64,000 bases of DNA from Escherichia phage vB_EcoM_VR25: the sequence record NC_028925.1; one strand, written 5' to 3'. The translations under genes and the position numbers were made by a program. Shown in pieces: positions 1-63,999 of the stretch (position 1 is its first letter; each line of letters opens with the position of its first letter). The notes below the pieces were generated by a model, which was not told the DNA's origin, ran no database searches, and worked only from the letters and a program-made list of their open reading frames with translations.

Positions 1-2
1 GA

Positions 3-770
3 AAACTGAAAACCTCTTTAACCGTTGAGCTTGCGCAAGACCTGGAAGCAAATGGTTTCGACGCAACAGATTTTATTGATAATATCCTTGGTATTCAAAT
101 GGCAGAGGAAATTAATAAGGACGTACTGCAATCTTTAATTACCGTGAGTTCGCGTTTTAAAGTCCAGGGTGTTTCCGAAAAAGGTGTACTTAATCTTACT
201 GATGCCGCTTATGATAATGCTCAGGACCGTGCTCGAACTCTGTATTATTATATGTGCGAAATGAATTCCGCAGTTCAACGTCAGACTTCGTTCGCTGGTA
301 CATATGCAGTCGCTTCTTCCCGTTGTGCAGCTATTTTAGCAGCTTCTGGCTGGGTTGAGAAAAAGGAAGACCAAGATGAATTGGCCTATGGTGTTCTGAA
401 GAACGGTTTGCCACTTTATGCAGATATGAATAGCCCGTGCGATTATGTTATTGTTGGTGTAAATGCTGATATGGGTGAAGGTCAGACAGTCGCATCTTTG
501 TATTATGCGCCTTATACGGAAGGTCTTAGTGAAGTTGATGATGAGGGTGACACCTCGGTTGGGGAATTCAAGGTTATCGTTGACCCCGAAAGTTTACAGC
601 CTACAGTTGCACTGTTAGCTCGTTATGCACTGACTGCAAACCCTTACACCGTTGCTAAAGACGATAAAGAAGCTCGCATTATTGATGGAGCTGATATGGA
701 TAAGATGGCTAACCAAAGCCAATTGAGTTCTTATCTTGGTGTTAAACTTCCACCACTGGAAAAAGAATAA
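3..770 (+). CDS. 24: capsid vertex protein gp24 (paralog of major capsid protein gp23), 3' portion; gene begins upstream of window
   Basis: Frame open from window edge (KLKTSLTVELAQDLEANGFDATDF... continuing into listed ORF 99..770); sits immediately upstream of rnlB as in T4; cannot exclude gp23 from sequence alone. Confidence 0.6.
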   Translation, partial: KLKTSLTVELAQDLEANGFDATDFIDNILGIQMAEEINKDVLQSLITVSSRFKVQGVSEKGVLNLTDAAYDNAQDRARTLYYYMCEMNSAVQRQTSFAGTYAVASSRCAAILAASGWVEKKEDQDELAYGVLKNGLPLYADMNSPCDYVIVGVNADMGEGQTVASLYYAPYTEGLSEVDDEGDTSVGEFKVIVDPESLQPTVALLARYALTANPYTVAKDDKEARIIDGADMDKMANQSQLSSYLGVKLPPLEKE

Positions 771-790
771 GGGCCTTGCGGCCCTTTTTA
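771..790. terminator. hairpin terminator after gene 24 (gggccttgcggccc + T-tract), usable in both directions
   Basis: Perfect 5-bp GC stem with ttgc loop followed by TTTTTA; A/T-rich on the other side for rnlB. Confidence 0.7.
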
Positions 791-1795
791 TTAACTAATT
801 AATGCAATCCAAACATGTCTTAATGTATCTCTTACATTTGCAATGAGTTGCTTTTTAACTTCAACAGGATTTTCCGTCTGGGTTAATTCAAGGCCTTCCC
901 GACCTGCTTCTTCCAAAATATCTTGAACAGTCAAACCCATTACCTTTCCAAAATCCTTTGGCGTTACTTCCCCAATTTTACTGATAACATTGTTGATGCG
1001 GTTAACAGTCACATAATCAGTGAACTTCCATAAAATGTCCAGGTCTTCCTGGGACAACACAACAGCAGCCTTGATAGGCTTATCAGACTTTTTCTTTTCG
1101 CTGAATTTAGAGTTCTTACATTTAATCGCTACGCGCTCACCATTAGGTAACCAGGCCGGAGTATCAGGTTTAAGAACATACCCTTCTGCAGTGAATACTT
1201 TACCTTCAACCTTTGCGTCAAAATCGGTGGTATTCGCGGTAGTCAAACCCGCATTATCTACTGTAAAATTGTAATCAGGAACCACAGAATCCAGGTCGTT
1301 AGGGAGCTTAATCAAGTCTTCAAAGCTACCCGTAGCCAGTCGTGGGGCAACCTTAAATTTATGGATAATACAGAAGGCTTCCATCAATGAATCAGTCAAA
1401 ACAGATTCAGAGCCATCTTCCTTAGTAACGCGGATATCAAATACATAGAAATCTTTGTCACCATAATCAACATTCTTCTGGATACCCGCCCCGGCAAACT
1501 CACCATAAATTTGGTATGATTGATAATTAATATCCTGTAAAAGTCTCTGCACAGTTTTAATGGAATCTGCATAGTTCTTGAGTACAATTTCGTAGCCATA
1601 GAAATCTTCTGCAGGTAGGATAGGTCCAGTGCGTTTCGCACATGTCACATTGTCTTGTTCAATGATTAATGAAAAGTTGGTGCCATGAATTTTCTCACGC
1701 GCTACCCATTCACCGCTGGTGAAGCCTTGCAGGCGAATCTTTTCAATGAACTTGTTGTTATAGTGATTTTCAAGGCTGTTGTATTTCTTAAACAT
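791..1795 (-). CDS. rnlB: RNA ligase 2 (Rnl2)
   Basis: 334 aa; nucleotidyltransferase motif I EKIHGTN near N-terminus; same size as T4 Rnl2; synteny. Confidence 0.9.
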
Positions 1796-1892
1796 AATCT
1801 CTCACTTTTGATGTTATAAATATCATTATAAATTATACCCTCTATACTTTCTTTCTCTGAAAGGAATTAATCGTATCGGAAGGTCTAGAACC

Positions 1893-1920
1893 ATTATACC
1901 ACAATTTTATTTGAAGCAAA
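1893..1920 (-). promoter_or_regulatory. MotA-dependent middle promoter candidate upstream of rnlB
   Basis: Minus strand reads tttTGCTTCA-N13-TATAAT (MotA box plus -10). Confidence 0.5.
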
Positions 1921-1924
1921 AAGG

Positions 1925-2188
1925 TCAGAATTTTACATACAATGTTGGCTTGTTTTCTTGCCAATTATAATTCCAGGTAAATGATGTAAATTTTTCTGCC
2001 CGCAGAAAATCAGATATCTTTGTGCGGTTTCCTTCTTCATACTCTTTTTCAGAAACTGCCATATTAACAGCATCTTTGCCATTCTCGGCAGCGGCAATAG
2101 CCACTTTGCGAAATATAACAATAAAGTCATTTGCAACTTTATCTTGTGATTCTTTAGCCATTTGGCGTAGTTCTTCTGCGAATGTCAT
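1925..2188 (-). CDS. hypothetical protein (24.2-position)
   Basis: 87 aa ORF, co-oriented with rnlB. Confidence 0.45.
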   Translation of the reverse strand: MTFAEELRQMAKESQDKVANDFIVIFRKVAIAAAENGKDAVNMAVSEKEYEEGNRTKISDFLRAEKFTSFTWNYNWQENKPTLYVKF

Positions 2189-2388
2189 TTCTTCACCTTT
2201 TTGTTAAACAACCGCTTGCGGTATACGATTTTCTCTCGTGACTTGAACTTTTCTTTAGCTTGTTCAACATCAACCCATGCCTTTGCCATTTCTTTAGCGG
2301 TCCCGCCTAATACCTTGGCGATTTCAATAAATGTCATACCAGTTTCATGCAGGAAATGTACTTTAACCTTATTCATAACCATTCTCAT
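2185..2388 (-). CDS. hypothetical small protein with possible helix-turn-helix (24.3-position)
   Basis: 67 aa; segment GMTFIEIAKVLGGTAKEMAKAW resembles an HTH; basic C-terminus; 4-nt overlap with downstream ORF. Confidence 0.45.
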   Translation of the reverse strand: MRMVMNKVKVHFLHETGMTFIEIAKVLGGTAKEMAKAWVDVEQAKEKFKSREKIVYRKRLFNKKVKK

Positions 2389-2495
2389 GTTGAGTTAGTG
2401 AAGCTATCTTAACATGGAATTTTTAACTTGTAAACAGGAGTTTTATGCCAGATATTCTTGAACGTAAAGATTTACTTTACAACCGCCACTACTTT

Positions 2496-2503
2496 AATAA
2501 ATA
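2496..2503 (+). promoter_or_regulatory. late-promoter-like box (AATAAATA, one mismatch to TATAAATA) upstream of collagen-like gene
   Basis: Located ~25 nt upstream of the ATG at 2526. Confidence 0.3.
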
Positions 2504-2525
2504 TTAAATTAATAACGGAGGATTT

Positions 2526-4106
2526 ATGACACAAACTACAGGTGAAAAAGAAGGCGTATTTTACGGTTATTCTCTTTATGATTTGAATAAAGAAAAACTA
2601 ATAACTTTTGATGAATTACTTACAGGTGTTCAAGGAGAGCCCGGAGAAAATGGCGATATTGGACCAAAAGGCCCTATTGGTTTAACAGGTCCTCAAGGAC
2701 CGAAAGGTGATACCGGGTCAAAAGGTATTAAAGGTGATACCGGCCCTCAAGGTATTCAAGGGCCCGCTGGCCCACAAGGTCCTCAGGGAGAAAAGGGAGT
2801 CCAAGGTTTAGCTGGAGTCCAAGGCATTCAAGGACCAGTCGGCCACCAAGGAGTGAAAGGTGATACCGGCCCTCAAGGTATTCAAGGACCGAAAGGTGAT
2901 ACAGGTCCTCAAGGCCCACAAGGTGACAAAGGCGAAATGGGTCCGGTGGGTCCGGCTGGTCTAACATGGAAAGGAACATGGGACGCTGATGTAGAGTATT
3001 CTATAAATGAGGCTGTCGGATATGGTGGTTCTTTATATTTCGCCAAAACAAAAGTTCCTAATGGCGAAATACCAACACCGACTTCTAACTATTGGGGTGT
3101 TTTGGCTACCGAGGGTCCACAAGGTCCACAAGGTCAACAAGGTCTTAAAGGTGATACCGGTCCTCAAGGTATTCAAGGACCTGTAGGGCCTGTAGGGCAG
3201 CAGGGTATTCAGGGACCAAGAGGACTTCAAGGGTCAGAAGGTGAAATAGGACCGCGGGGTATTCAAGGGCTAAAAGGCGAAACTGGGCCCGCTGGTCCAC
3301 AGGGTATTCAAGGGCTAAAAGGCGAGGTGGGTGCTCAGGGTCCTTCTGGTTCTCCTGGACTTACAGGACCAGAAGGACCTCGTGGGTTAACAGGCGAAGC
3401 TGGAGCTCAAGGACCTCGTGGTGCTATAGGTCCTATCGGTTTAACAGGTCCTATCGGTTTAACGGGTCCTCAAGGTATTCAAGGTCCTAAAGGTGATACA
3501 GGTCCTCAAGGCTTACAAGGTCCTCAAGGCTTACGAGGTATTCAAGGAGCTCCTGGAGTAAAAGGAGAAGCGGGTGCACAAGGTCCTATCGGTTTAACAG
3601 GTCCGAAAGGTGATACCGGTCCTCAAGGTATTCAAGGACCGAAAGGTGATACAGGAGCACAAGGTCCTATTGGTTTAACTGGACCTAAAGGTGATACAGG
3701 CCCGAGCCCTTATACTGTTTATAATTATTCTAATGTTGCAACTGGTTATGCTGAAATGGTTATGCCTGGTGTGTCATCAAACACAGTATTTAGACTTCGT
3801 TCAGTTGGAACTAATATAGAATATAGTGTTCTAAGTAAAGGCGGAGCTAATAGATATGTAGATTGGCACTTTTCAATTCCAAGTGTTTCCGGCAATACAG
3901 TAAGTACTAATAGCGGAACTAATACATTAACTCCTACAGGTAATTTTACTATTGTGGCGACCGCTTATAATGGACTAAGGGGATTTACAATAACATTATG
4001 CGAGTGGGGTTCAAGAGCTATTGTTGATATCACTGTTTATCATCATGGGCGTTCGGGAGACACAACCAAAGCTGTGGCTATTCGTATGACTACTACAAAA
4101 TACTAA
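2526..4106 (+). CDS. collagen-like triple-helix repeat protein with globular C-terminal domain
   Basis: 526 aa; about 100 uninterrupted Gly-X-Y triplets in two blocks separated by a ~50-aa W/Y-rich non-collagen segment; ~130-aa non-repetitive C-terminal domain; AGGA-type RBS (ggagga) 6 nt upstream of ATG. Confidence 0.8.
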   Translation: MTQTTGEKEGVFYGYSLYDLNKEKLITFDELLTGVQGEPGENGDIGPKGPIGLTGPQGPKGDTGSKGIKGDTGPQGIQGPAGPQGPQGEKGVQGLAGVQGIQGPVGHQGVKGDTGPQGIQGPKGDTGPQGPQGDKGEMGPVGPAGLTWKGTWDADVEYSINEAVGYGGSLYFAKTKVPNGEIPTPTSNYWGVLATEGPQGPQGQQGLKGDTGPQGIQGPVGPVGQQGIQGPRGLQGSEGEIGPRGIQGLKGETGPAGPQGIQGLKGEVGAQGPSGSPGLTGPEGPRGLTGEAGAQGPRGAIGPIGLTGPIGLTGPQGIQGPKGDTGPQGLQGPQGLRGIQGAPGVKGEAGAQGPIGLTGPKGDTGPQGIQGPKGDTGAQGPIGLTGPKGDTGPSPYTVYNYSNVATGYAEMVMPGVSSNTVFRLRSVGTNIEYSVLSKGGANRYVDWHFSIPSVSGNTVSTNSGTNTLTPTGNFTIVATAYNGLRGFTITLCEWGSRAIVDITVYHHGRSGDTTKAVAIRMTTTKY

Positions 4107-4115
4107 GGAGCTTTA

Positions 4116-4979
4116 ATGGAACCGGTTAAAGCTGTGTTAGAGCCTGATGTAATAGATGTGGAATATGGTAATACATACTCGGCTACTGTAACTCTGTCTC
4201 CTATAGAAAATATTCCAGATGGTTCCGTGATAAGATATGATTGGGTTGTTAATAACAAGTTCGTTGGTACGGGTGAAGCTACTCGTACCACCCAACCATC
4301 TCAGACCGGAAATTATGTATTATCATGTAGAGTATTCATTACTCCGCCTAATGAAAATACTGTAATGATAACAACTAATAAATCATATGGGTATGTATAT
4401 AAAAATTCCGATACAAGTCCAGTAGATGCAGAAATATTATATGATAACAAGATATACCAAATAGGAAGCAAAGTTAGATTATTAGCCGTTGCCAATAACC
4501 CAGATACCAACTTTGTTAAAGGTATTATATGGAAGGATGCTGATGGTAAGATAATAGGTATAGGTCGGGAATATATCCATACAATGCAATCAGAGTATGA
4601 TATAGTTCGAGCTAAAGTTACAATGGATTCGCCTATAAGAGATGAATTTAGTAAGAACTTTACTATACATTTGTACGCTATAAATGTTCAAGAAGGAACA
4701 TGTATAAGATATATTCATCCTTTAGACCACAGGGATGCAGGATTTATCTGGTGTGGTTGGTGGGTTATGGATGAAATCCAACGAGCGATAAAACTTGGGC
4801 TGGATTGGAAAAATCCAAAAGAGCTAGATTTAAATTACAAGTGTGATTTAGAGACATTAGCGTTATTGCTCAAGACATATCCTGAAGCCGAAGTTCAAGA
4901 ATCAAGACACGGATATATAATAACCAGACTACAAATTGAGACTGGCGAAATATATAAAAAACCATATGAAGTAAAATAA
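4116..4979 (+). CDS. Hoc-like outer-capsid decoration protein paralog (Ig-like N-terminal region plus Hoc-type capsid-binding C-terminal domain)
   Basis: 287 aa; C-terminal ~90 aa (YIHPLDHRDAGFIWCGWWVMDEIQ...YPEAEVQESRHGYI) clearly homologous to C-terminus of ORF 5003..6106; starts 9 nt after collagen-like gene. Confidence 0.75.
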   Translation: MEPVKAVLEPDVIDVEYGNTYSATVTLSPIENIPDGSVIRYDWVVNNKFVGTGEATRTTQPSQTGNYVLSCRVFITPPNENTVMITTNKSYGYVYKNSDTSPVDAEILYDNKIYQIGSKVRLLAVANNPDTNFVKGIIWKDADGKIIGIGREYIHTMQSEYDIVRAKVTMDSPIRDEFSKNFTIHLYAINVQEGTCIRYIHPLDHRDAGFIWCGWWVMDEIQRAIKLGLDWKNPKELDLNYKCDLETLALLLKTYPEAEVQESRHGYIITRLQIETGEIYKKPYEVK

Positions 4980-5000
4980 AAGGGCCTTGCGGCCCTTTAT
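4980..5000. terminator. bidirectional hairpin terminator between convergent Hoc-like paralog and hoc
   Basis: gggccttgcggccc stem-loop identical to the one at 771..784, flanked by T-rich tracts on both strands. Confidence 0.7.
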
Positions 5001-5002
5001 CA

Positions 5003-6106
5003 TTAATAGACGTAATCGTATATAATACCAGCTTCCAATGCCGAACGGTGGACGATACGACCGTTACGAGATTCCTGTACATCAACTTCCGGGTAATCAC
5101 TAAGCATTTTGGCTAATACCGCCAGATGACAATAATATGGTGTATCCTCTTTAGTGGCTTTTTTCCAATCTGTACTTTCAGATGTTAATTTCTGAATAGC
5201 GTCCATAACCCACCAGCCACACCAAATATACGCAGTATTACGGACAGGAAGTGGATGTACATAAATTAAAGGGCATTCTTCTGGAATAACAGGCTCTGCT
5301 TCTTCCACAGTAACGGACTTAGTACCTGATTTAACTGAATTTGTAAAGCCTGTTTGTGATGCGGTAACTTCACAAGTATATGTCTTCAAGCCTTCAGTGG
5401 ATTCCGTTATTGCTCTTGTTGCTTCTGTTGAGTTGTCGTCCCATTTATATGCAAGAGTCGCACCAGGGATAGCAGGGGACACAGAAGCTGTCAAATTGAA
5501 TGGAACATCAACCGTTGCAGTAGACGGGCCTGAAATCTCAACAGTGAACTCAGGAAATGTATTGTTTTCGACCGTAACAACTACTGCCTCAGGATTAATA
5601 ACTTGATTGTCATAATCTGCCGCAGAAACGGTAATTTGGCAAGTTAAAGAAACTGGTCCTGCGTCAGTAGCAGCACGAGTAATATCTTTAGTAATTTCAC
5701 CAGTAGACCACAAATATGCTATTGTAGCTCCACCGGGTTCACCTGTTACATTAGCCGAAGCGTTATATTCCTGACCAACTTTAACAGTAGGAGTGGAAGT
5801 TGTTAATGTTGCTGTTGCAGCCATAGTCTTATTATTAACCGTAATGGTTGTTTGAGCCTCTGCCGTTTCAGGCTCTCCTTCTTCCGGCGTTGTGGTGGCA
5901 ACAACTTTAATTACTTTTGAACCTGCTGGGCCAGCTGCAATATAATCCATAGTAGCAATAACAGAATCTTGTGGAACATCATCAACGGTCCATACAAAAG
6001 ATTCGGTACCAGCGACAGCGGCTCCAGCCCCAGTAGCAGTAAAATTAGTTGTTGCACCTATAACCGCTGTAGGTGTTAAAGGGGCAATTGATACAGTATA
6101 AGCCAT
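5003..6106 (-). CDS. hoc: highly immunogenic outer capsid protein Hoc
   Basis: 367 aa; T/S/A-rich tandem Ig-like segments; C-terminal YVHPLPVRNTAYIWCGWWVMDAIQ...YPEVDVQESRNGRIVH matches remembered T4 Hoc capsid-binding domain; synteny next to inh. Confidence 0.85.
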   Translation of the reverse strand: MAYTVSIAPLTPTAVIGATTNFTATGAGAAVAGTESFVWTVDDVPQDSVIATMDYIAAGPAGSKVIKVVATTTPEEGEPETAEAQTTITVNNKTMAATATLTTSTPTVKVGQEYNASANVTGEPGGATIAYLWSTGEITKDITRAATDAGPVSLTCQITVSAADYDNQVINPEAVVVTVENNTFPEFTVEISGPSTATVDVPFNLTASVSPAIPGATLAYKWDDNSTEATRAITESTEGLKTYTCEVTASQTGFTNSVKSGTKSVTVEEAEPVIPEECPLIYVHPLPVRNTAYIWCGWWVMDAIQKLTSESTDWKKATKEDTPYYCHLAVLAKMLSDYPEVDVQESRNGRIVHRSALEAGIIYDYVY

Positions 6107-6134
6107 AAAACCTCCAAGGGCCGAAGCCCTTTTG

Positions 6135-6815
6135 TTAATTTAAACGAATAAAAGATGAGTTACGTGTTTCACGAATAAGAATGGAACCGTCACGATTGAT
6201 ATAGTAAATCAAACTAAACAATGTTTGGTGTGCGCTTGCATGAGTAAAAGAAGTAGGGCGTTCTTTCCAGTCCGGGGTCTCTTTAATCCACTGGTAAATC
6301 CACCAAGGGAGAGTACAATATCCAGGAGCTTTGCCCAGCATAAGCAGATTGGGGCTAAAATTTTTAGGCAGTGTAAATTTAGGAGTTTCAGCTTCGATGA
6401 TTTGAGCGACAGCTTCTTCAAAGTCTTCGGAAACAAACGGCACTTCAATTTCAACGAGTTTAACTTCTGATTCAGGAACAACTTCCTGGGTAACTTCGAC
6501 TACTTCAACGGGTGCTTCTGGAGCATCAAACAAAAGAACAGCTTCAGGTTTAGCTGATTCTTCACCTTCAAACTTACCACCTGATAATTCATCATCGGCA
6601 TTAATAAGGTCGGTGATGCTTAAGCCTTCGTTATCGTCCGGCATAGGCATGTCAGCAAATGCTTGCAGCCCGGCTTCCAGGTCAATCAACATATTATCGA
6701 AAGTTTTTGTTTTCTTAACATCAACACCAAGCGATGATGCATATTCAGCTAATTTTTCTTTGGCTTCTTTTTTCTCGAGGACACGAATTTCCTCAATATA
6801 GTTCTTATCAATCAT
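6135..6815 (-). CDS. inh: Inh-like protein (inhibitor of prohead protease), by position
   Basis: 226 aa acidic protein between hoc and uvsW as in T4; assignment by synteny and size only. Confidence 0.5.
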   Translation of the reverse strand: MIDKNYIEEIRVLEKKEAKEKLAEYASSLGVDVKKTKTFDNMLIDLEAGLQAFADMPMPDDNEGLSITDLINADDELSGGKFEGEESAKPEAVLLFDAPEAPVEVVEVTQEVVPESEVKLVEIEVPFVSEDFEEAVAQIIEAETPKFTLPKNFSPNLLMLGKAPGYCTLPWWIYQWIKETPDWKERPTSFTHASAHQTLFSLIYYINRDGSILIRETRNSSFIRLN

Positions 6816-6833
6816 AATGAACCTCGGTTATTG

Positions 6834-6841
6834 TATAAATA
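6834..6841 (+). promoter_or_regulatory. T4 late promoter TATAAATA upstream of uvsW
   Basis: Exact TATAAATA ~30 nt upstream of uvsW start. Confidence 0.6.
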
Positions 6842-6869
6842 TAGATATATTTATTACCTTGGAATCATC

Positions 6870-8369
6870 ATGGATATCAAAATCAACTTTTTAAATTTTA
6901 GTCATGTACATGTTGAATGTGAAGATAGTATCTTCTATGAACTCCGTGACTATTTCAGTTTTGAAGCCGAAAACTATCGGTTTAACCCTAAATTCAGAGC
7001 GGGAGTTTGGGACGGACGTATCCGTCTCCTGGATTATAACCGTAAATTACCGTACGGCTTAGTTAACCAGATTAAAAAATTCGCTGACCAGTTTGGTTAT
7101 TCATTTTGGATTGACCCTCAAATCACCGAGAAAGAGGAAATCTCCCGTGTGGATTTCGATAAATGGGTCGAGTCAAAAGAAATCTATTCAGGCCATACCA
7201 AGATTACTCCCCATTGGTACCAAACAGACGCCGTATACGACGGTCTGGTCAACAGAAGAAAGATATTGAACTTACCTACGTCTGCAGGTAAAAGCCTCAT
7301 CCAGGCGCTCCTGGCGCGATATTATCTCGAGAACTATGAAGGCAAGGTTCTTATCCTTGTACCTACAACCGCGCTCGTTGACCAGATGATTAACGATTTC
7401 GTCGATTACAGATTGTTCCCTCGAGAAGCCTGTCTCGGTATCCGCTCCGGAACTAAACGTGATTCGGATGCAATGATTTATGTGTCTACTTATCAGACGG
7501 CAGTAAAACAACCTAAAGAATGGTTTTCACAGTTCGGTCAGTTTATGAATGATGAATGTCATATGGCTACTGGTAAATCCATTTCGACCGTTATCGAAGG
7601 CCTGACTAATTGTATGTTTAAATTTGGTCTCTCTGGTTCTCTCCGTGATGGCAAAGCAAACCTTATGCAATATATGGGTCTGTTTGGTGATATCTTTAAA
7701 CCCGTATCCACATCCCAATTAATGGATGAAGGCCAAGTTACTGACCTTAAGATAAATAGTATTTTCCTTCGTTACCCTGATGAATTCACCATTAAAATGA
7801 AAGGCAAATCTTATCAAGATGAAATCAAGGTAATTACAAAAGCTACGCGTAGAAATAAATGGGTAACAAACCTTGCACTCAAGCTTGCTAAAAAAGATGA
7901 AAACGTCTTTTTGATGTTTAAGAATATCGAGCACGGTAAATCGATGTTTGAAATGCTTAAGGAAGCTGGTCATGAGAATGTGTATTATGTTTCCGGGGAA
8001 GTTGATACAGAAACACGTAACGCATTAAAGGTCATGGCAGAGAATGGAAAGGGAATTATCGTTGTAGCTTCATATGGTGTATTCTCGACGGGAATTTCCG
8101 TTAAAAACCTCCATCATATTATTTTCGCTCACCCGGTCAAGTCAAAGGTAATTGTACTCCAGACAATTGGTCGTGTACTTCGAAAACATGAATCCAAATC
8201 GACCGCAAACGTGTGGGACATCGTGGACGATATGGGGGTCAAACCCAAATCAGCAAACGCTAAAAAGAAATATGTTCACTTGAACTTTGCACTGAAACAC
8301 GCATTAGAACGTATTCAGCGGTATGCAGACGAAAAATTCAATTATATCATTAAACAGGTGGAAATATAA
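6870..8369 (+). CDS. uvsW: UvsW SF2 DNA/RNA helicase
   Basis: Start chosen at MDIKINF within ORF 6831..8369; Walker A LNLPTSAGKS, DECH box; T4 UvsW N-terminus remembered as MDIKVHF. Confidence 0.9.
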   Translation: MDIKINFLNFSHVHVECEDSIFYELRDYFSFEAENYRFNPKFRAGVWDGRIRLLDYNRKLPYGLVNQIKKFADQFGYSFWIDPQITEKEEISRVDFDKWVESKEIYSGHTKITPHWYQTDAVYDGLVNRRKILNLPTSAGKSLIQALLARYYLENYEGKVLILVPTTALVDQMINDFVDYRLFPREACLGIRSGTKRDSDAMIYVSTYQTAVKQPKEWFSQFGQFMNDECHMATGKSISTVIEGLTNCMFKFGLSGSLRDGKANLMQYMGLFGDIFKPVSTSQLMDEGQVTDLKINSIFLRYPDEFTIKMKGKSYQDEIKVITKATRRNKWVTNLALKLAKKDENVFLMFKNIEHGKSMFEMLKEAGHENVYYVSGEVDTETRNALKVMAENGKGIIVVASYGVFSTGISVKNLHHIIFAHPVKSKVIVLQTIGRVLRKHESKSTANVWDIVDDMGVKPKSANAKKKYVHLNFALKHALERIQRYADEKFNYIIKQVEI

Positions 8370-8596
8370 TGAAGTCATTTGAAGAAATTATGTATGAAGC
8401 GGCAATTGAAAGCTTCATGTCTAAGATAGGTTCTTGTCAGACCATGGACGGTCTGAAGGAGCTGGAAGGTTATTATAAAAAGCGCAGCAAAGAAGCTGAA
8501 TTGAAAGATTCCGATGATATCAGTGTTCGCGATGCTCTAGCGGGTAAACGTGCCGAGCTTGAGGATATGGACGACGAAGAAGACGAAGATTTCTAA
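8369..8596 (+). CDS. uvsW.1: UvsW.1 small acidic protein
   Basis: 75 aa ORF immediately following uvsW, acidic C-terminus; synteny. Confidence 0.65.
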   Translation: MKSFEEIMYEAAIESFMSKIGSCQTMDGLKELEGYYKKRSKEAELKDSDDISVRDALAGKRAELEDMDDEEDEDF

Positions 8597-8606
8597 ATAA
8601 AAAGGC

Positions 8607-8640
8607 CCCAACCAAAAAGGAAGGGGCAAAACCAAAATGG
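8607..8640 (-). terminator. possible minus-strand terminator after the uvsY operon
   Basis: Minus strand gcccc…ggggc stem followed by CTTTTTATTT. Confidence 0.35.
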
Positions 8641-8653
8641 TTAACAACACTAG

Positions 8654-8821
8654 CTAAATTAAAAGTTGGGTCTCGTTCAGTTGCTCTTGTGTATTTTCCG
8701 TAACTGGCAAACTCTGAACATAATTATAACAGGCGCCCGGATGCACCGGACCTTGGTCTGTATCCACAACCAATGCAGAATCGATTGGAGTTTTACAGAC
8801 AACACAAATCTTATCTGACAT
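8654..8821 (-). CDS. small Cys-containing protein (uvsY.-2 position), 55 aa
   Basis: Hand-translated MSDKICVVCKTPIDSALVVDTDQGPVHPGACYNYVQSL...; below the 60-aa cutoff of the ORF track. Confidence 0.4.
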   Translation of the reverse strand: MSDKICVVCKTPIDSALVVDTDQGPVHPGACYNYVQSLPVTENTQEQLNETQLLI

Positions 8822-8954
8822 GATTGTCTCCTCAGTTAAACTTACATATCTATTTAGTGCTTCTTTAATGCGGCATTAATAAACTGTTGAAATTCACGCA
8901 TCTTCTCTTCAGAAGGTTTTAATGGTTTTCTAATATTTGCTTTACGACAACCCA

Positions 8955-16706: not shown

Positions 16707-16713
16707 AAAGAAA

Positions 16714-19172: not shown

Positions 19173-19180
19173 CTAAAAAA

Positions 19181-19192
19181 GGGCCGAAGCCC
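19181..19192 (-). terminator. hairpin terminator after DNA ligase gene (gggccgaagccc + T-tract on minus strand)
   Basis: Stem-loop followed by TTTTTTAG on minus strand. Confidence 0.6.
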
Positions 19193-19197
19193 TTTTG

Positions 19198-33782: not shown

Positions 33783-33785
33783 AAA

Positions 33786-33797
33786 GGGCCGAAGCCC
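33786..33797 (-). terminator. hairpin terminator after nrdB
   Basis: gggccgaagccc followed by TTTTTG on minus strand. Confidence 0.5.
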
Positions 33798-33802
33798 TTT
33801 CC

Positions 33803-62812: not shown

Positions 62813-63010
62813 TTATTCACCAAAATAAGAAATACGGATTGCCAGTACATGAGCGTAAGCGCTCATTGCATCTAACTGGGCATTCAAAAGACCTTGCTGA
62901 CGATTATCGAGAGTTTCAAAAACACCACCTTTAACAAACGTTTCAAGAGCATTGATTTTCAGGACCAGTTGGTCATATTCTTCAACTACACGTGCTTGGA
63001 AACCTAACAT
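62813..63010 (-). CDS. hypothetical protein (rII.1 position)
   Basis: 65 aa ORF. Confidence 0.45.
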   Translation of the reverse strand: MLGFQARVVEEYDQLVLKINALETFVKGGVFETLDNRQQGLLNAQLDAMSAYAHVLAIRISYFGE

Positions 63011-63045
63011 AAAGCCTCATTAGGGGCCGAAGCCCCCCGATTAAT

Positions 63046-63999
63046 TTAGAATTGTTCAGTTACATCGTCAAGAACCAGGTAACCACAAACTCTCATTTTT
63101 GAATCATTATAATCCACCGGGATACTTACAACATCACGCGGGTGAACTTTACAGGATACGATACGGCCATCACCATGACCAAAACCGCTTCCGATATAAC
63201 CTTTAGAGCAAACATGCAGTCCAGTTGAACAGGTCTGTTCGTCATTGTCATTCACACGAGAGCGCGGCATTTTAACATATTGACCAGGGCTGTTGTCAAA
63301 TGTATTTGAGTGACAATCTTTGTAGGTTGAACGAACCATTTTCCAGGCGATGAAATGACCGTCTTCAGTGATTTCGATATCGTTCGCAACCAGGAAGTCA
63401 AACAAACGCTGTACTGCTTTCTCGCTTGGGTTCTCAAGGAGATTCTCAAGGAACGGCAGATAGAATTCAAAATCTTCGCCATTTTGCATTGAATTGATGA
63501 TACGAGTAACCAGACCGGAGCGCAGTTCAATTCCCTGATAGAACAGACTACCGCCTTCAATACGCACATCGCCTTTCACATATTTTTGCACCGCAGCTTT
63601 GATAGAGATAAACTCGATAGCATCATCAAAACGAGATTCTTTGAGTGCCTGGATAATAGCATCAAAGTGTTTATGGTCTTTTGTTGCGTTCCAGACTGTA
63701 CGACCTTCGGTGATGGAAACAAATTTGCTTGATGCGTTCCATACGATTTCCGGTCGGCTTCCACCAATTGTATCAGTAACTGGGACCACTTGAGGTTCAT
63801 TAGGAACCGTTACTGTAATATTTCCGGTAATAACTACTTCAGAAGGCTTAAATTCTTTATCATTTTTCAAAACGCGACGAATGGTATCAACTGAAATATT
63901 GTACCAGTCAGCTAGTTCCTGTTGTGTATAGTTACCTGAAGCATACAGAGAAACAATTTGTTTTTGTTCGTATTCAGAGACGCATTTAATATTGTACAT
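63046..63999 (-). CDS. rIIB: rIIB membrane-associated protein
   Basis: 317 aa; matches remembered T4 rIIB (MYNIKC…SGNYTQQELADW…SVDTIRRVLKN…DVRIEGGSLFYQ.IELRSGLV…FEFY.PFLENLLENPS.KAV.RLFDFLVANDIEITEDG…). Confidence 0.9.
   Translation of the reverse strand: MYNIKCVSEYEQKQIVSLYASGNYTQQELADWYNISVDTIRRVLKNDKEFKPSEVVITGNITVTVPNEPQVVPVTDTIGGSRPEIVWNASSKFVSITEGRTVWNATKDHKHFDAIIQALKESRFDDAIEFISIKAAVQKYVKGDVRIEGGSLFYQGIELRSGLVTRIINSMQNGEDFEFYLPFLENLLENPSEKAVQRLFDFLVANDIEITEDGHFIAWKMVRSTYKDCHSNTFDNSPGQYVKMPRSRVNDNDEQTCSTGLHVCSKGYIGSGFGHGDGRIVSCKVHPRDVVSIPVDYNDSKMRVCGYLVLDDVTEQF

Follow-up and report, generated by a model that had tools for sequence, protein, structure and literature searches.

The genome of Escherichia phage vB_EcoM_VR25 (sequence record NC_028925.1) was analyzed over a stretch of 64,000 nucleotides (nt), hereafter the window, in which a short GC-rich hairpin occurs at two sites, T1 and T2, each located between two convergent genes. 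The first 7 kilobases (kb) of the window correspond to the gene 24-rnlB-24.2-24.3-hoc-inh-uvsW region of T4-like coliphages of the genus Gaprivervirus. Genes were assigned by matching open reading frames (ORFs) to their orthologs in the annotated relatives VR7, VR26, VR20, and SP18. The second copy of gene 24 ends at position 770 of the plus strand (stop codon 768-770) and converges on rnlB on the minus strand (791-1795, stop codon 791-793), which is conserved, as are the minus-strand genes 24.2 (1925-2188) and 24.3 (2185-2388). Next comes a variable plus-strand module (about 2452-4978), which is absent from VR20, SP18, and the JS98-like phages and includes an upstream ORF of 20 codons (2446-2508), a gene for a collagen-repeat protein (2526-4106; Pfam Collagen, E = 1.9e-50), and a Hoc paralog (4116-4979, stop codon 4977-4979). 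The paralog shares an overall 28% identity with Hoc, the C-terminal domain being conserved, and converges on hoc itself (5003-6106, minus strand, stop codon 5003-5005), beyond which lies inh (6135-6815, minus strand). A literature search on the collagen and Hoc-paralog genes of VR7 returned nothing relevant.

Sequence, fold, and distribution of the hairpins

According to the original prediction, an exact 17-mer (AGGGCCTTGCGGCCCTT) follows gene 24 and recurs after the Hoc paralog. A search of the window places it at 770-786 and 4981-4997, exactly where it had been reported, and identity extends even further, to 19 nt (AAGGGCCTTGCGGCCCTTT, 769-787 and 4980-4998), of which these are the only two copies in the window. 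With up to two mismatches allowed, no third copy of the 17-mer was found in the window, and none of 100 shuffled sequences contained any match. The gene context of both copies also agrees with the annotated genomes of VR7, VR26, VR20, and SP18.

T1 (769-787) is composed of AAGGGCC-TTGC-GGCCCTT and one further T, with TTTTT next on the plus strand, and occupies the gap between the stop codons of gene 24 and rnlB. T2 (4979-4998) is composed of AAAGGGCC-TTGC-GGCCCTTT and lies in the gap between the stop codons of the Hoc paralog and hoc. Both hairpins, which can form on either strand, fill gaps of 20-23 nt between convergent stop codons (770/791 and 4979/5003), and their stems comprise 7-8 perfect base pairs (bp), five of them G:C, with an A-run before and a T-run after. 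When 41-nt contexts were folded as RNA on both strands, the minimum free energies were -12.1 kcal/mol (plus) and -13.5 kcal/mol (minus) for T1, and -13.5 kcal/mol (plus) and -13.9 kcal/mol (minus) for T2 (z = -2.4 to -3.3; shuffled sequences, about -6.5 kcal/mol). A terminator scan called T1 on both strands and T2 on the minus strand. The U-tracts of T1 are UUUUUAUU on the plus strand and UUAUUCUUUUU on the minus strand, while at T2 the minus-strand tract (UUUUAUUUU) surpasses the plus-strand one (UUUAUCAUU), and T2 is therefore predicted to serve mainly as the hoc terminator. In minus-strand transcripts, the loop of both hairpins is GCAA, a GNRA tetraloop closed by C:G, i.e., C(GCAA)G. A scan of the whole window against Rfam at gathering thresholds matched no family.

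The earlier impression that these hairpins look like terminators is supported in silico: each forms a stable G+C-rich stem-loop on both strands, has a 3' U-tract, and lies directly after stop codons. A UNCG or GNRA loop with C:G closing, the signature of the stable tetraloops, is present in T1, T2, and the second hairpin type described below. The GGGCC/GGCCC core is lengthened by A:T pairs from the flanking A-run and T-run, leaving a U-tract after the stem on both strands, and each hairpin would thus be shared by one convergent gene pair for two-way termination. Termination activity at both sites is predicted from these sequence features. Very likely, T1 and T2 are ordinary T4-type bidirectional intrinsic terminators of convergent gene pairs and not movers of modules, and they probably also stabilize mRNA 3' ends.

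The window contains 12 intergenic GC-rich hairpins, 11 of which are tetraloops, and 12 of its 58 intergenic gaps contain one. Sharing of sequence is also seen within this set, AAGGGCcgaaGCCCTT being common to three and GGGACCcgaaGGTCCC to two of the 12 hairpins. The repeat at T1 and T2 is non-random with respect to base composition, yet not unusual within its hairpin class. A second hairpin type (AAGGGCCGAAGCCCTT) had been reported near 6112, 19179, 33784, and 63022. It is present exactly at 19179 and 33784; the first position should read 6116, and the type is absent at 63022, where 63023-63036 (minus strand) holds a related but distinct hairpin, GGGGCcgaaGCCCC (GGGGC-CGAA-GCCCC). With such minor corrections, the earlier observation of the repeat is real and confirmed in part. 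The second type lies on the minus strand, between minus-strand genes, at 6116-6131 (AAGGGC-CGAA-GCCCTT, between hoc and inh, with the loop UUCG in the mRNA), 19177-19196 (AAAAGGGC-CGAA-GCCCTTTT, between alt and gene 30), and 33783-33800 (AAAGGGC-CGAA-GCCCTTT, between denA and nrdB), the genes flanking the latter two being named by their position in VR26. In VR7, an extra 502 bp, by position the HNH endonuclease gene ORF292c, is found beside the GGGGCcgaaGCCCC hairpin (63010-63054); besides that at T2, this is the sole indel in the window that abuts a hairpin.

All eight hairpins between co-directional genes carry UUCG on the mRNA strand, those between minus-strand genes (6116, 19177, 23910, 33783, 41044, and 63023) reading CGAA on the plus strand and those between plus-strand genes (49337 and 53271) reading TTCG, which argues for selection at the RNA level. 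A GNRA or UNCG loop on one strand is present in 20 of 24 relatives at T1 and in 23 of 25 at T2; at these convergent sites, the stable loop may be on either strand, varying by phage.

The 14-mer core and an 18-mer each match at least 119 IMG/VR stretches, mostly on unrelated viral contigs, and the hairpin design is therefore generic and arises independently; the IMG/VR scans (14-, 18-, and 20-mers) bear on this generality and give no copy counts per genome. For a genome-wide count, the complete VR26 genome (171,541 bp) was assembled from six stretches. It contains 26 stable-tetraloop hairpins, which form 325 pairs, 10 of them identical (3%), and its 14-mer core occurs solely at T1 and T2.

Conservation of the hairpins and edges of the module

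The comparison set comprised 30 RnlB-anchored loci and 12 further genomes from phage collections. In nearly all loci that could be examined, a GC-rich hairpin is present at T1, in the gap between gene 24 and rnlB, and at T2, 3' of hoc, whether the module is present or not. The original prediction had placed the hairpins at module borders and had named their occurrence regardless of module structure as grounds for abandoning that idea; the same hairpin family is indeed found at both positions with or without the module. The insert-free JS98-like phages (L010, L011, and L031) have GGGCCttgcGGCCC after hoc, and all genomes with the hoc 3'-end allele of the window (VR7, VR26, VR5, and ESCO10; group I) have a GGGCC-GCAA/TTGC hairpin there. 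A related GCAA-type hairpin with a 5-nt loop follows hoc in the insert-free L029, whose hoc 3' end (79% nt identity) is the closest outside the allele group of the window. Because the hairpin follows the hoc allele, including in insert-free phages, T2 would be the resident hoc terminator. The plus-strand module genes would then lie in a dispensable spacer of about 30 nt before T2 and use T2 in the opposite direction, and both hairpins would be positional features of the gene 24/rnlB and 24.3/hoc junctions throughout T4-like phages.

It was also considered that T2 arrived with the module as the paralog's own terminator, the GCAA loop facing the paralog in VR7 and VR26. This candidate was rejected, as the insert-free L029 and the JS98-like phages keep the hoc hairpin.

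VR20, SP18, and the JS98-like phages align to window positions 1-2444/2451 and resume at 4972-4993, which sets the variable segment at about 2452-4978. The hairpins had been said to bracket this insertion. On alignment to relatives, the claim holds for the right edge, which abuts T2, but not for the left edge, which lies near 2452, 1.67 kb from T1, and has no hairpin; insertion edges away from the hairpins had been named beforehand as counting against the idea. The conserved rnlB, 24.2, and 24.3 lie inside the T1-T2 interval, between T1 and the module, and T1 is thus not a module border. In insert-free phages, about 27 nt lie between the conserved region upstream of 24.3 and the hoc terminator; with so short a spacer, any viable insertion must end beside the T2 hairpin. 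The left junction (...TTTATGCCAG/ATATTCTTGAACG..., the right side beginning with ATATTC) does not differ among the window, VR7, VR26, and VR5, the four insert-bearing genomes that were aligned, and a single event is therefore favored. Compared with VR7, the divergent part of the module (2671-4702) begins and ends inside genes, those for the collagen-repeat protein and the Hoc paralog, and not at hairpins.

A Shine-Dalgarno sequence and an ATG at the left junction (2446-2508 in the window, about 2940-2970 in L002, and 9038 in L024) are kept even in the insert-free VR20 and SP18, where the ORF from this ATG has 9 codons in place of the 20 in the window. Their retention suggests that the insert-free state could be a deletion. 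In the Salmonella S16-like phage L024, the left-junction ATG opens a gene of 539 amino acids (aa), followed by a 285-aa Hoc paralog that converges on a different hairpin. With the same gene layout at the same site in a distant Salmonella phage, the module may be an old one that was lost repeatedly, and not a recent insertion. The 24.3/hoc junction looks like a hot spot for head-decoration genes. In L024 (9038-14980), the 539-aa gene and the Hoc paralog on the plus strand face a 944-aa minus-strand Hoc-like gene, which is present besides hoc, and a 944-aa Hoc-like gene is also found on the minus strand of MN01 (L164, 8488-12773).

The paralog and hoc stand tail to tail, with their homologous C-terminal domains abutting T2, and this geometry could also be explained by an inverted duplication centered on the palindrome, in which the paralog arose as a fold-back or template-switch copy of hoc around its terminator, the hairpin being a pivot and not a border. 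A 36-nt inverted repeat (4745-4780 and 5193-5228, 83% complementary) has its axis of symmetry at 4986.5, close to the center of the hairpin at 4988.5, and the mirrored arrangement recurs in L024. Such symmetry, however, would arise wherever two homologous C-termini share a terminator. In addition, every Hoc examined, the neighboring one included, is at about the same distance (roughly 50-55%) from the C-terminal domain of the paralog, so that no recent local duplication is visible, and the collagen gene is left unexplained. An origin of the paralog by such a duplication is very unlikely. The 36-nt inverted repeat is the coding sequence of the IWCGWWVMD motif, which is present in Hoc and in its paralog.

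The closest relative at this locus is VR26, with 97-98% nt identity over 1-8871, and VR7 is 97.3% identical over 4702-40647. The window is a mosaic of these two closest relatives, being VR26-like over 1-8871, including the rnlB, collagen, and Hoc-paralog alleles, and VR7-like over 4702-40647; the tail-fiber region (about 46.8-53.8 kb) diverges from both. The collagen-like gene (2526-4106) contains many tandem repeats of 9, 18, 27, or 36 nt, corresponding to Gly-X-Y units, and its length is 1284 nt in VR7, 1527 nt in VR26, and 1581 nt in the window.

Loop inversion and the likeness of T1 and T2

In VR7, VR26, VR5, ESCO10, and TH15, which have plus-strand genes at the site, T2 reads GGGCC-GCAA-GGCCC, the loop being reverse-complemented relative to the window. 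T1 and T2 are inverted copies in VR7, VR26, ESCO10, and TH15, and VR5 has a different T1. Since module-bearing relatives have the T2 loop reverse-complemented, the direct repeat would be recent, postdating the module, and specific to the genome of the window. The flanks of T2 are 97-98% identical between the window and VR26, in which the loop is GCAA, and T2 is the sole flipped hairpin among about 12 orthologous ones in the 64 kb compared between the two phages. Loop flips among relatives comprise TTGC/GCAA, GTAA/TTAC, TTTC/GAAA, and AAT/ATT at T1, and GCAA/TTGC and, twice, CGAA/TTCG at T2. At least seven pairs of orthologous hairpins at T1/T2 with an exactly reverse-complemented loop and the same stem and flanks were seen among about 40 genomes (L001, L003, L007, L161, and L162; L004-L034).

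Small inversions of hairpin loops between short inverted repeats, and quasipalindrome template-switch mutation, are known from chloroplast DNA and from work on T4 rII and E. coli. The flips resemble these small inversions in that the loop is swapped for its exact reverse complement with stem and flanks unchanged, both in T2 of the window compared with VR26 and VR7 and in at least six further cases at T1/T2, and they may arise by a similar mechanism. In a literature search, loop inversion was not found described for phage terminators. Orthologous terminators of T4-like phages commonly differ by such a loop flip, which could merit a systematic survey.

T1 and T2 would thus be identical in the window for three reasons, namely that the design is generic, that the same stem and loop were already present at both sites, and that the T2 loop has flipped. 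Reverse-complementing of this loop relative to the closest relatives would have turned an inverted pair into a direct 19-nt repeat.

Alternatively, T1 and T2 might be kept alike by ectopic copying, i.e., occasional short gene conversion or template switching, with the T2 loop of the window copied from T1. Three hairpin types are each common to T1 and T2 up to orientation: GGGCC-GCAA in the window, VR7, VR26, ESCO10, TH15, and MN01; GGGACC-GUAA in KIT01 alone, this type being found at T2 in no other genome examined; and GGGACC-UUCG in SP18, DK-13, and P479. In addition, GGGCC-GCAA is confined to T1 and T2 in the 171.5-kb VR26 genome, and the T2 hairpin has been replaced at least two times while the adjoining hoc 3' end stayed 85-96% identical. 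KIT01 (L163) carries the module and has GGGACC-TTAC-GGTCCC at 1462-1483 and 5327-5350, a 25-nt direct repeat. On the other hand, all three types are generic, with at least 119 (GGGCC-GCAA), 33 (GGGACC-GUAA), and at least 119 (GGGACC-UUCG) matching IMG/VR stretches, and GGGACC-UUCG also occurs at 16711 and 41044 of the window. Mixed types at T1 and T2 are common (VR20, TH41, P8, 212, UPEC01, CJ20, ECML-359, VR5, and JS98-like phages), and T1 never equals T2 in at least 10 more distant lineages. The state of the window is sufficiently explained by a loop flip in place, and further flips of this kind are seen at T1 as well as at T2. An extended conversion tract beyond the palindrome was sought in the window, KIT01, SP18, and TH15, and the two sites have only A/T runs and stop-codon bases in common.

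Rough binomial estimates made by hand for the excess of T1 = T2 over about 16 lineages gave P of about 0.12 with p = 0.076 (5 of 66 window pairs) and P of about 0.01 with p = 0.03 (VR26); the outcome depends on assumptions about the independence of lineages, and it was not relied on. Occasional copying between T1 and T2 is possible but unproven, and as the explanation for their likeness it is unlikely. The tendency of T1 and T2 to be of the same type within a genome could likewise merit such a survey.

Proposed recombination at the hairpins and known hairpin systems

The idea that reiterated terminator hairpins promote recombination of gene cassettes has already been published, in 2010 and 2014, as the PeSL model. 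PeSLs are composites of roughly 100 bp with a sigma-70 early promoter, located upstream of co-directional ORFans in hyperplastic regions (Arbiol et al. 2010, PMC2839356; Comeau et al. 2014, PMC4122927), and hoc has been named as a PeSL-associated gene (PMC2839356; PMC4122927). By analogy, T1 and T2 could be linkers whose short homology serves to insert, delete, or swap the cassettes they flank, and thus either the footprint of an integration or a substrate for excision of the rnlB-24.3-collagen-Hoc-paralog block. The resemblance lies in the repeated G/C-rich terminator stem-loops of T4-like genomes, for which a role as linkers in modular shuffling has been proposed. The differences are that T1 and T2 are bare hairpins of 19-20 nt between convergent late/structural genes, with no room for a promoter, and that they do not both flank the variable module. 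When the features of PeSLs were looked for at T1 and T2, the stem-loop was found (in silico), and an adjacent sigma-70 promoter, the composite of about 100 bp, and copies flanking variable ORFs were not. A sigma-70-like match (TTATCA-18-TATAAT, 10 of 12 positions) lies at 4997-5026 on the plus strand, directly after T2 and inside the 3' coding sequence of hoc, in antisense. It was rejected as the promoter half of a PeSL, being hoc coding sequence without a downstream plus-strand gene; it is conserved in relatives, probably as coding sequence.

The evidence for such linkers comprises mosaic junctions directly beside T1 in two independent comparisons, a hairpin that travels with gene 24 between the window and VR7 and between the window and SP18 yet accompanies rnlB when L010 is set against L008-L011, the right edge of the module at T2, direct T1/T2 repeats of 19 nt in the window, 25 nt in KIT01, and 22 nt in SP18, and published precedent, both for stem-loop cassette recombination by PeSLs and, as cited there, for T4 deletions ending at GGGC/GCCC (PMC2839356). 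Several observations are at odds with it. The left edge of the module and both ends of the segment divergent from VR7 are away from hairpins, as described above, and in VR7, VR26, ESCO10, and TH15, which have plus-strand genes at the site, T1 and T2 are inverted and not direct repeats. Comparison of the window with VR26, VR7, and VR20 gave 92 ends of indels or replaced segments, 39 of them intergenic; an intergenic hairpin is found within 25 nt of only 3 of the 92, though such hairpins are present in 12 of 58 intergenic gaps. Genomes with an empty site or a deletion were not found; in a search of 50,697 phage records, a synthetic T1 x T2 deletion junction was contiguous in 0 of 1,019 matching records. 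Finally, 19 nt is well below the roughly 100-bp homology of PeSLs, and at neither T1 nor T2 is there an associated promoter driving a co-directional gene. The role in moving cassettes that the original prediction had proposed is not borne out by these data, and PeSL-like linking at T1 and T2 is highly improbable. Its view of the hairpins as cassette borders is supported only in part, and the useful outcome is a negative one, i.e., the collagen/Hoc-paralog module is not a hairpin-flanked cassette.

With regard to the junctions at T1, gene 24, the T1 hairpin, and the T-tract show no difference between the window and VR7, after which rnlB is about 65-70% identical (nt; 71% aa) until identity returns to 100% at 1812-1815. 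This rnlB swap (787-1815) is flanked by 98-100% identity, and its right end coincides with TATAAATA (1815-1822, plus strand), just upstream of the rnlB start, which matches the T4 late-promoter consensus and would be a promoter pointing toward the plus-strand module. The reverse is seen with SP18, in which gene 24 and the hairpin differ and 96% identity begins at the first base after the hairpin. As the hairpin goes with gene 24 in some pairs and with rnlB in L010, crossovers appear to have occurred on both sides of T1. The gap between gene 24 and rnlB, however, is 20 nt long, so that a break at the hairpin is indistinguishable from a break at the gene boundary, where mosaic junctions of phages generally fall; the T1 junctions may simply be instances of this rule.

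Four observations weigh against the view of T1 and T2 as simple terminators. The swaps of gene 24 and rnlB alleles break exactly at T1; the sharing of types between T1 and T2 in KIT01, SP18, DK-13, and P479 hints at exchange that a purely functional account does not require; VR26 has its T1/T2 type nowhere else, compared with about 3% identical pairs genome-wide; and the plus-strand U-tract of T2 is weak (UUUAUCAUU). It is conceivable, though doubtful, that the palindromes are also active at the DNA level, with frequent loop inversion, occasional ectopic copying, and adjacent crossovers that swap gene 24, rnlB, and hoc-side alleles. If this were true, micro-rearrangements and mosaic junctions in T4-like genomes would have a recurrent origin in short terminator palindromes, one not described to date. 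As ordinary terminators, the two hairpins are unannotated but of textbook form, and little is at stake for this locus.

T4 deletion endpoints at GGGC/GCCC motifs, as cited in a later paper (Mosig et al. 1998, in PMC2839356), offer a partial parallel. The likeness is a GGGC...GCCC inverted repeat in a T4-type genome, tied to the loss of non-essential genes, and the difference is that no T1-T2 deletion occurs among the 1,019 matching records.

The convergent arrangement of the genes invites a second comparison. Bidirectional intrinsic terminators occur between convergent bacterial genes. T1 and T2 are similar to these in having one palindromic stem with A-run and T-run flanks in a gap of 20-23 nt, and a hairpin with a U-tract on both strands. 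They differ in the weak plus-strand U-tract of T2.

The closest likeness is to the stable-tetraloop hairpins of T4, the extra-stable C(UUCG)G hairpin having first been found in T4 mRNA (PMC4371310). Like these, the hairpins of the window have a short G+C stem, C:G closing, and a UUCG or GNRA loop, and they lie directly after stop codons and before a U-tract. On the mRNA strand, the second hairpin type is C(UUCG)G to the letter, and T1 and T2 are C(GCAA)G on the minus strand. Nothing substantive sets T1 and T2 apart from this class, in which they stand as members where only one of the two convergent transcripts carries the GNRA loop.

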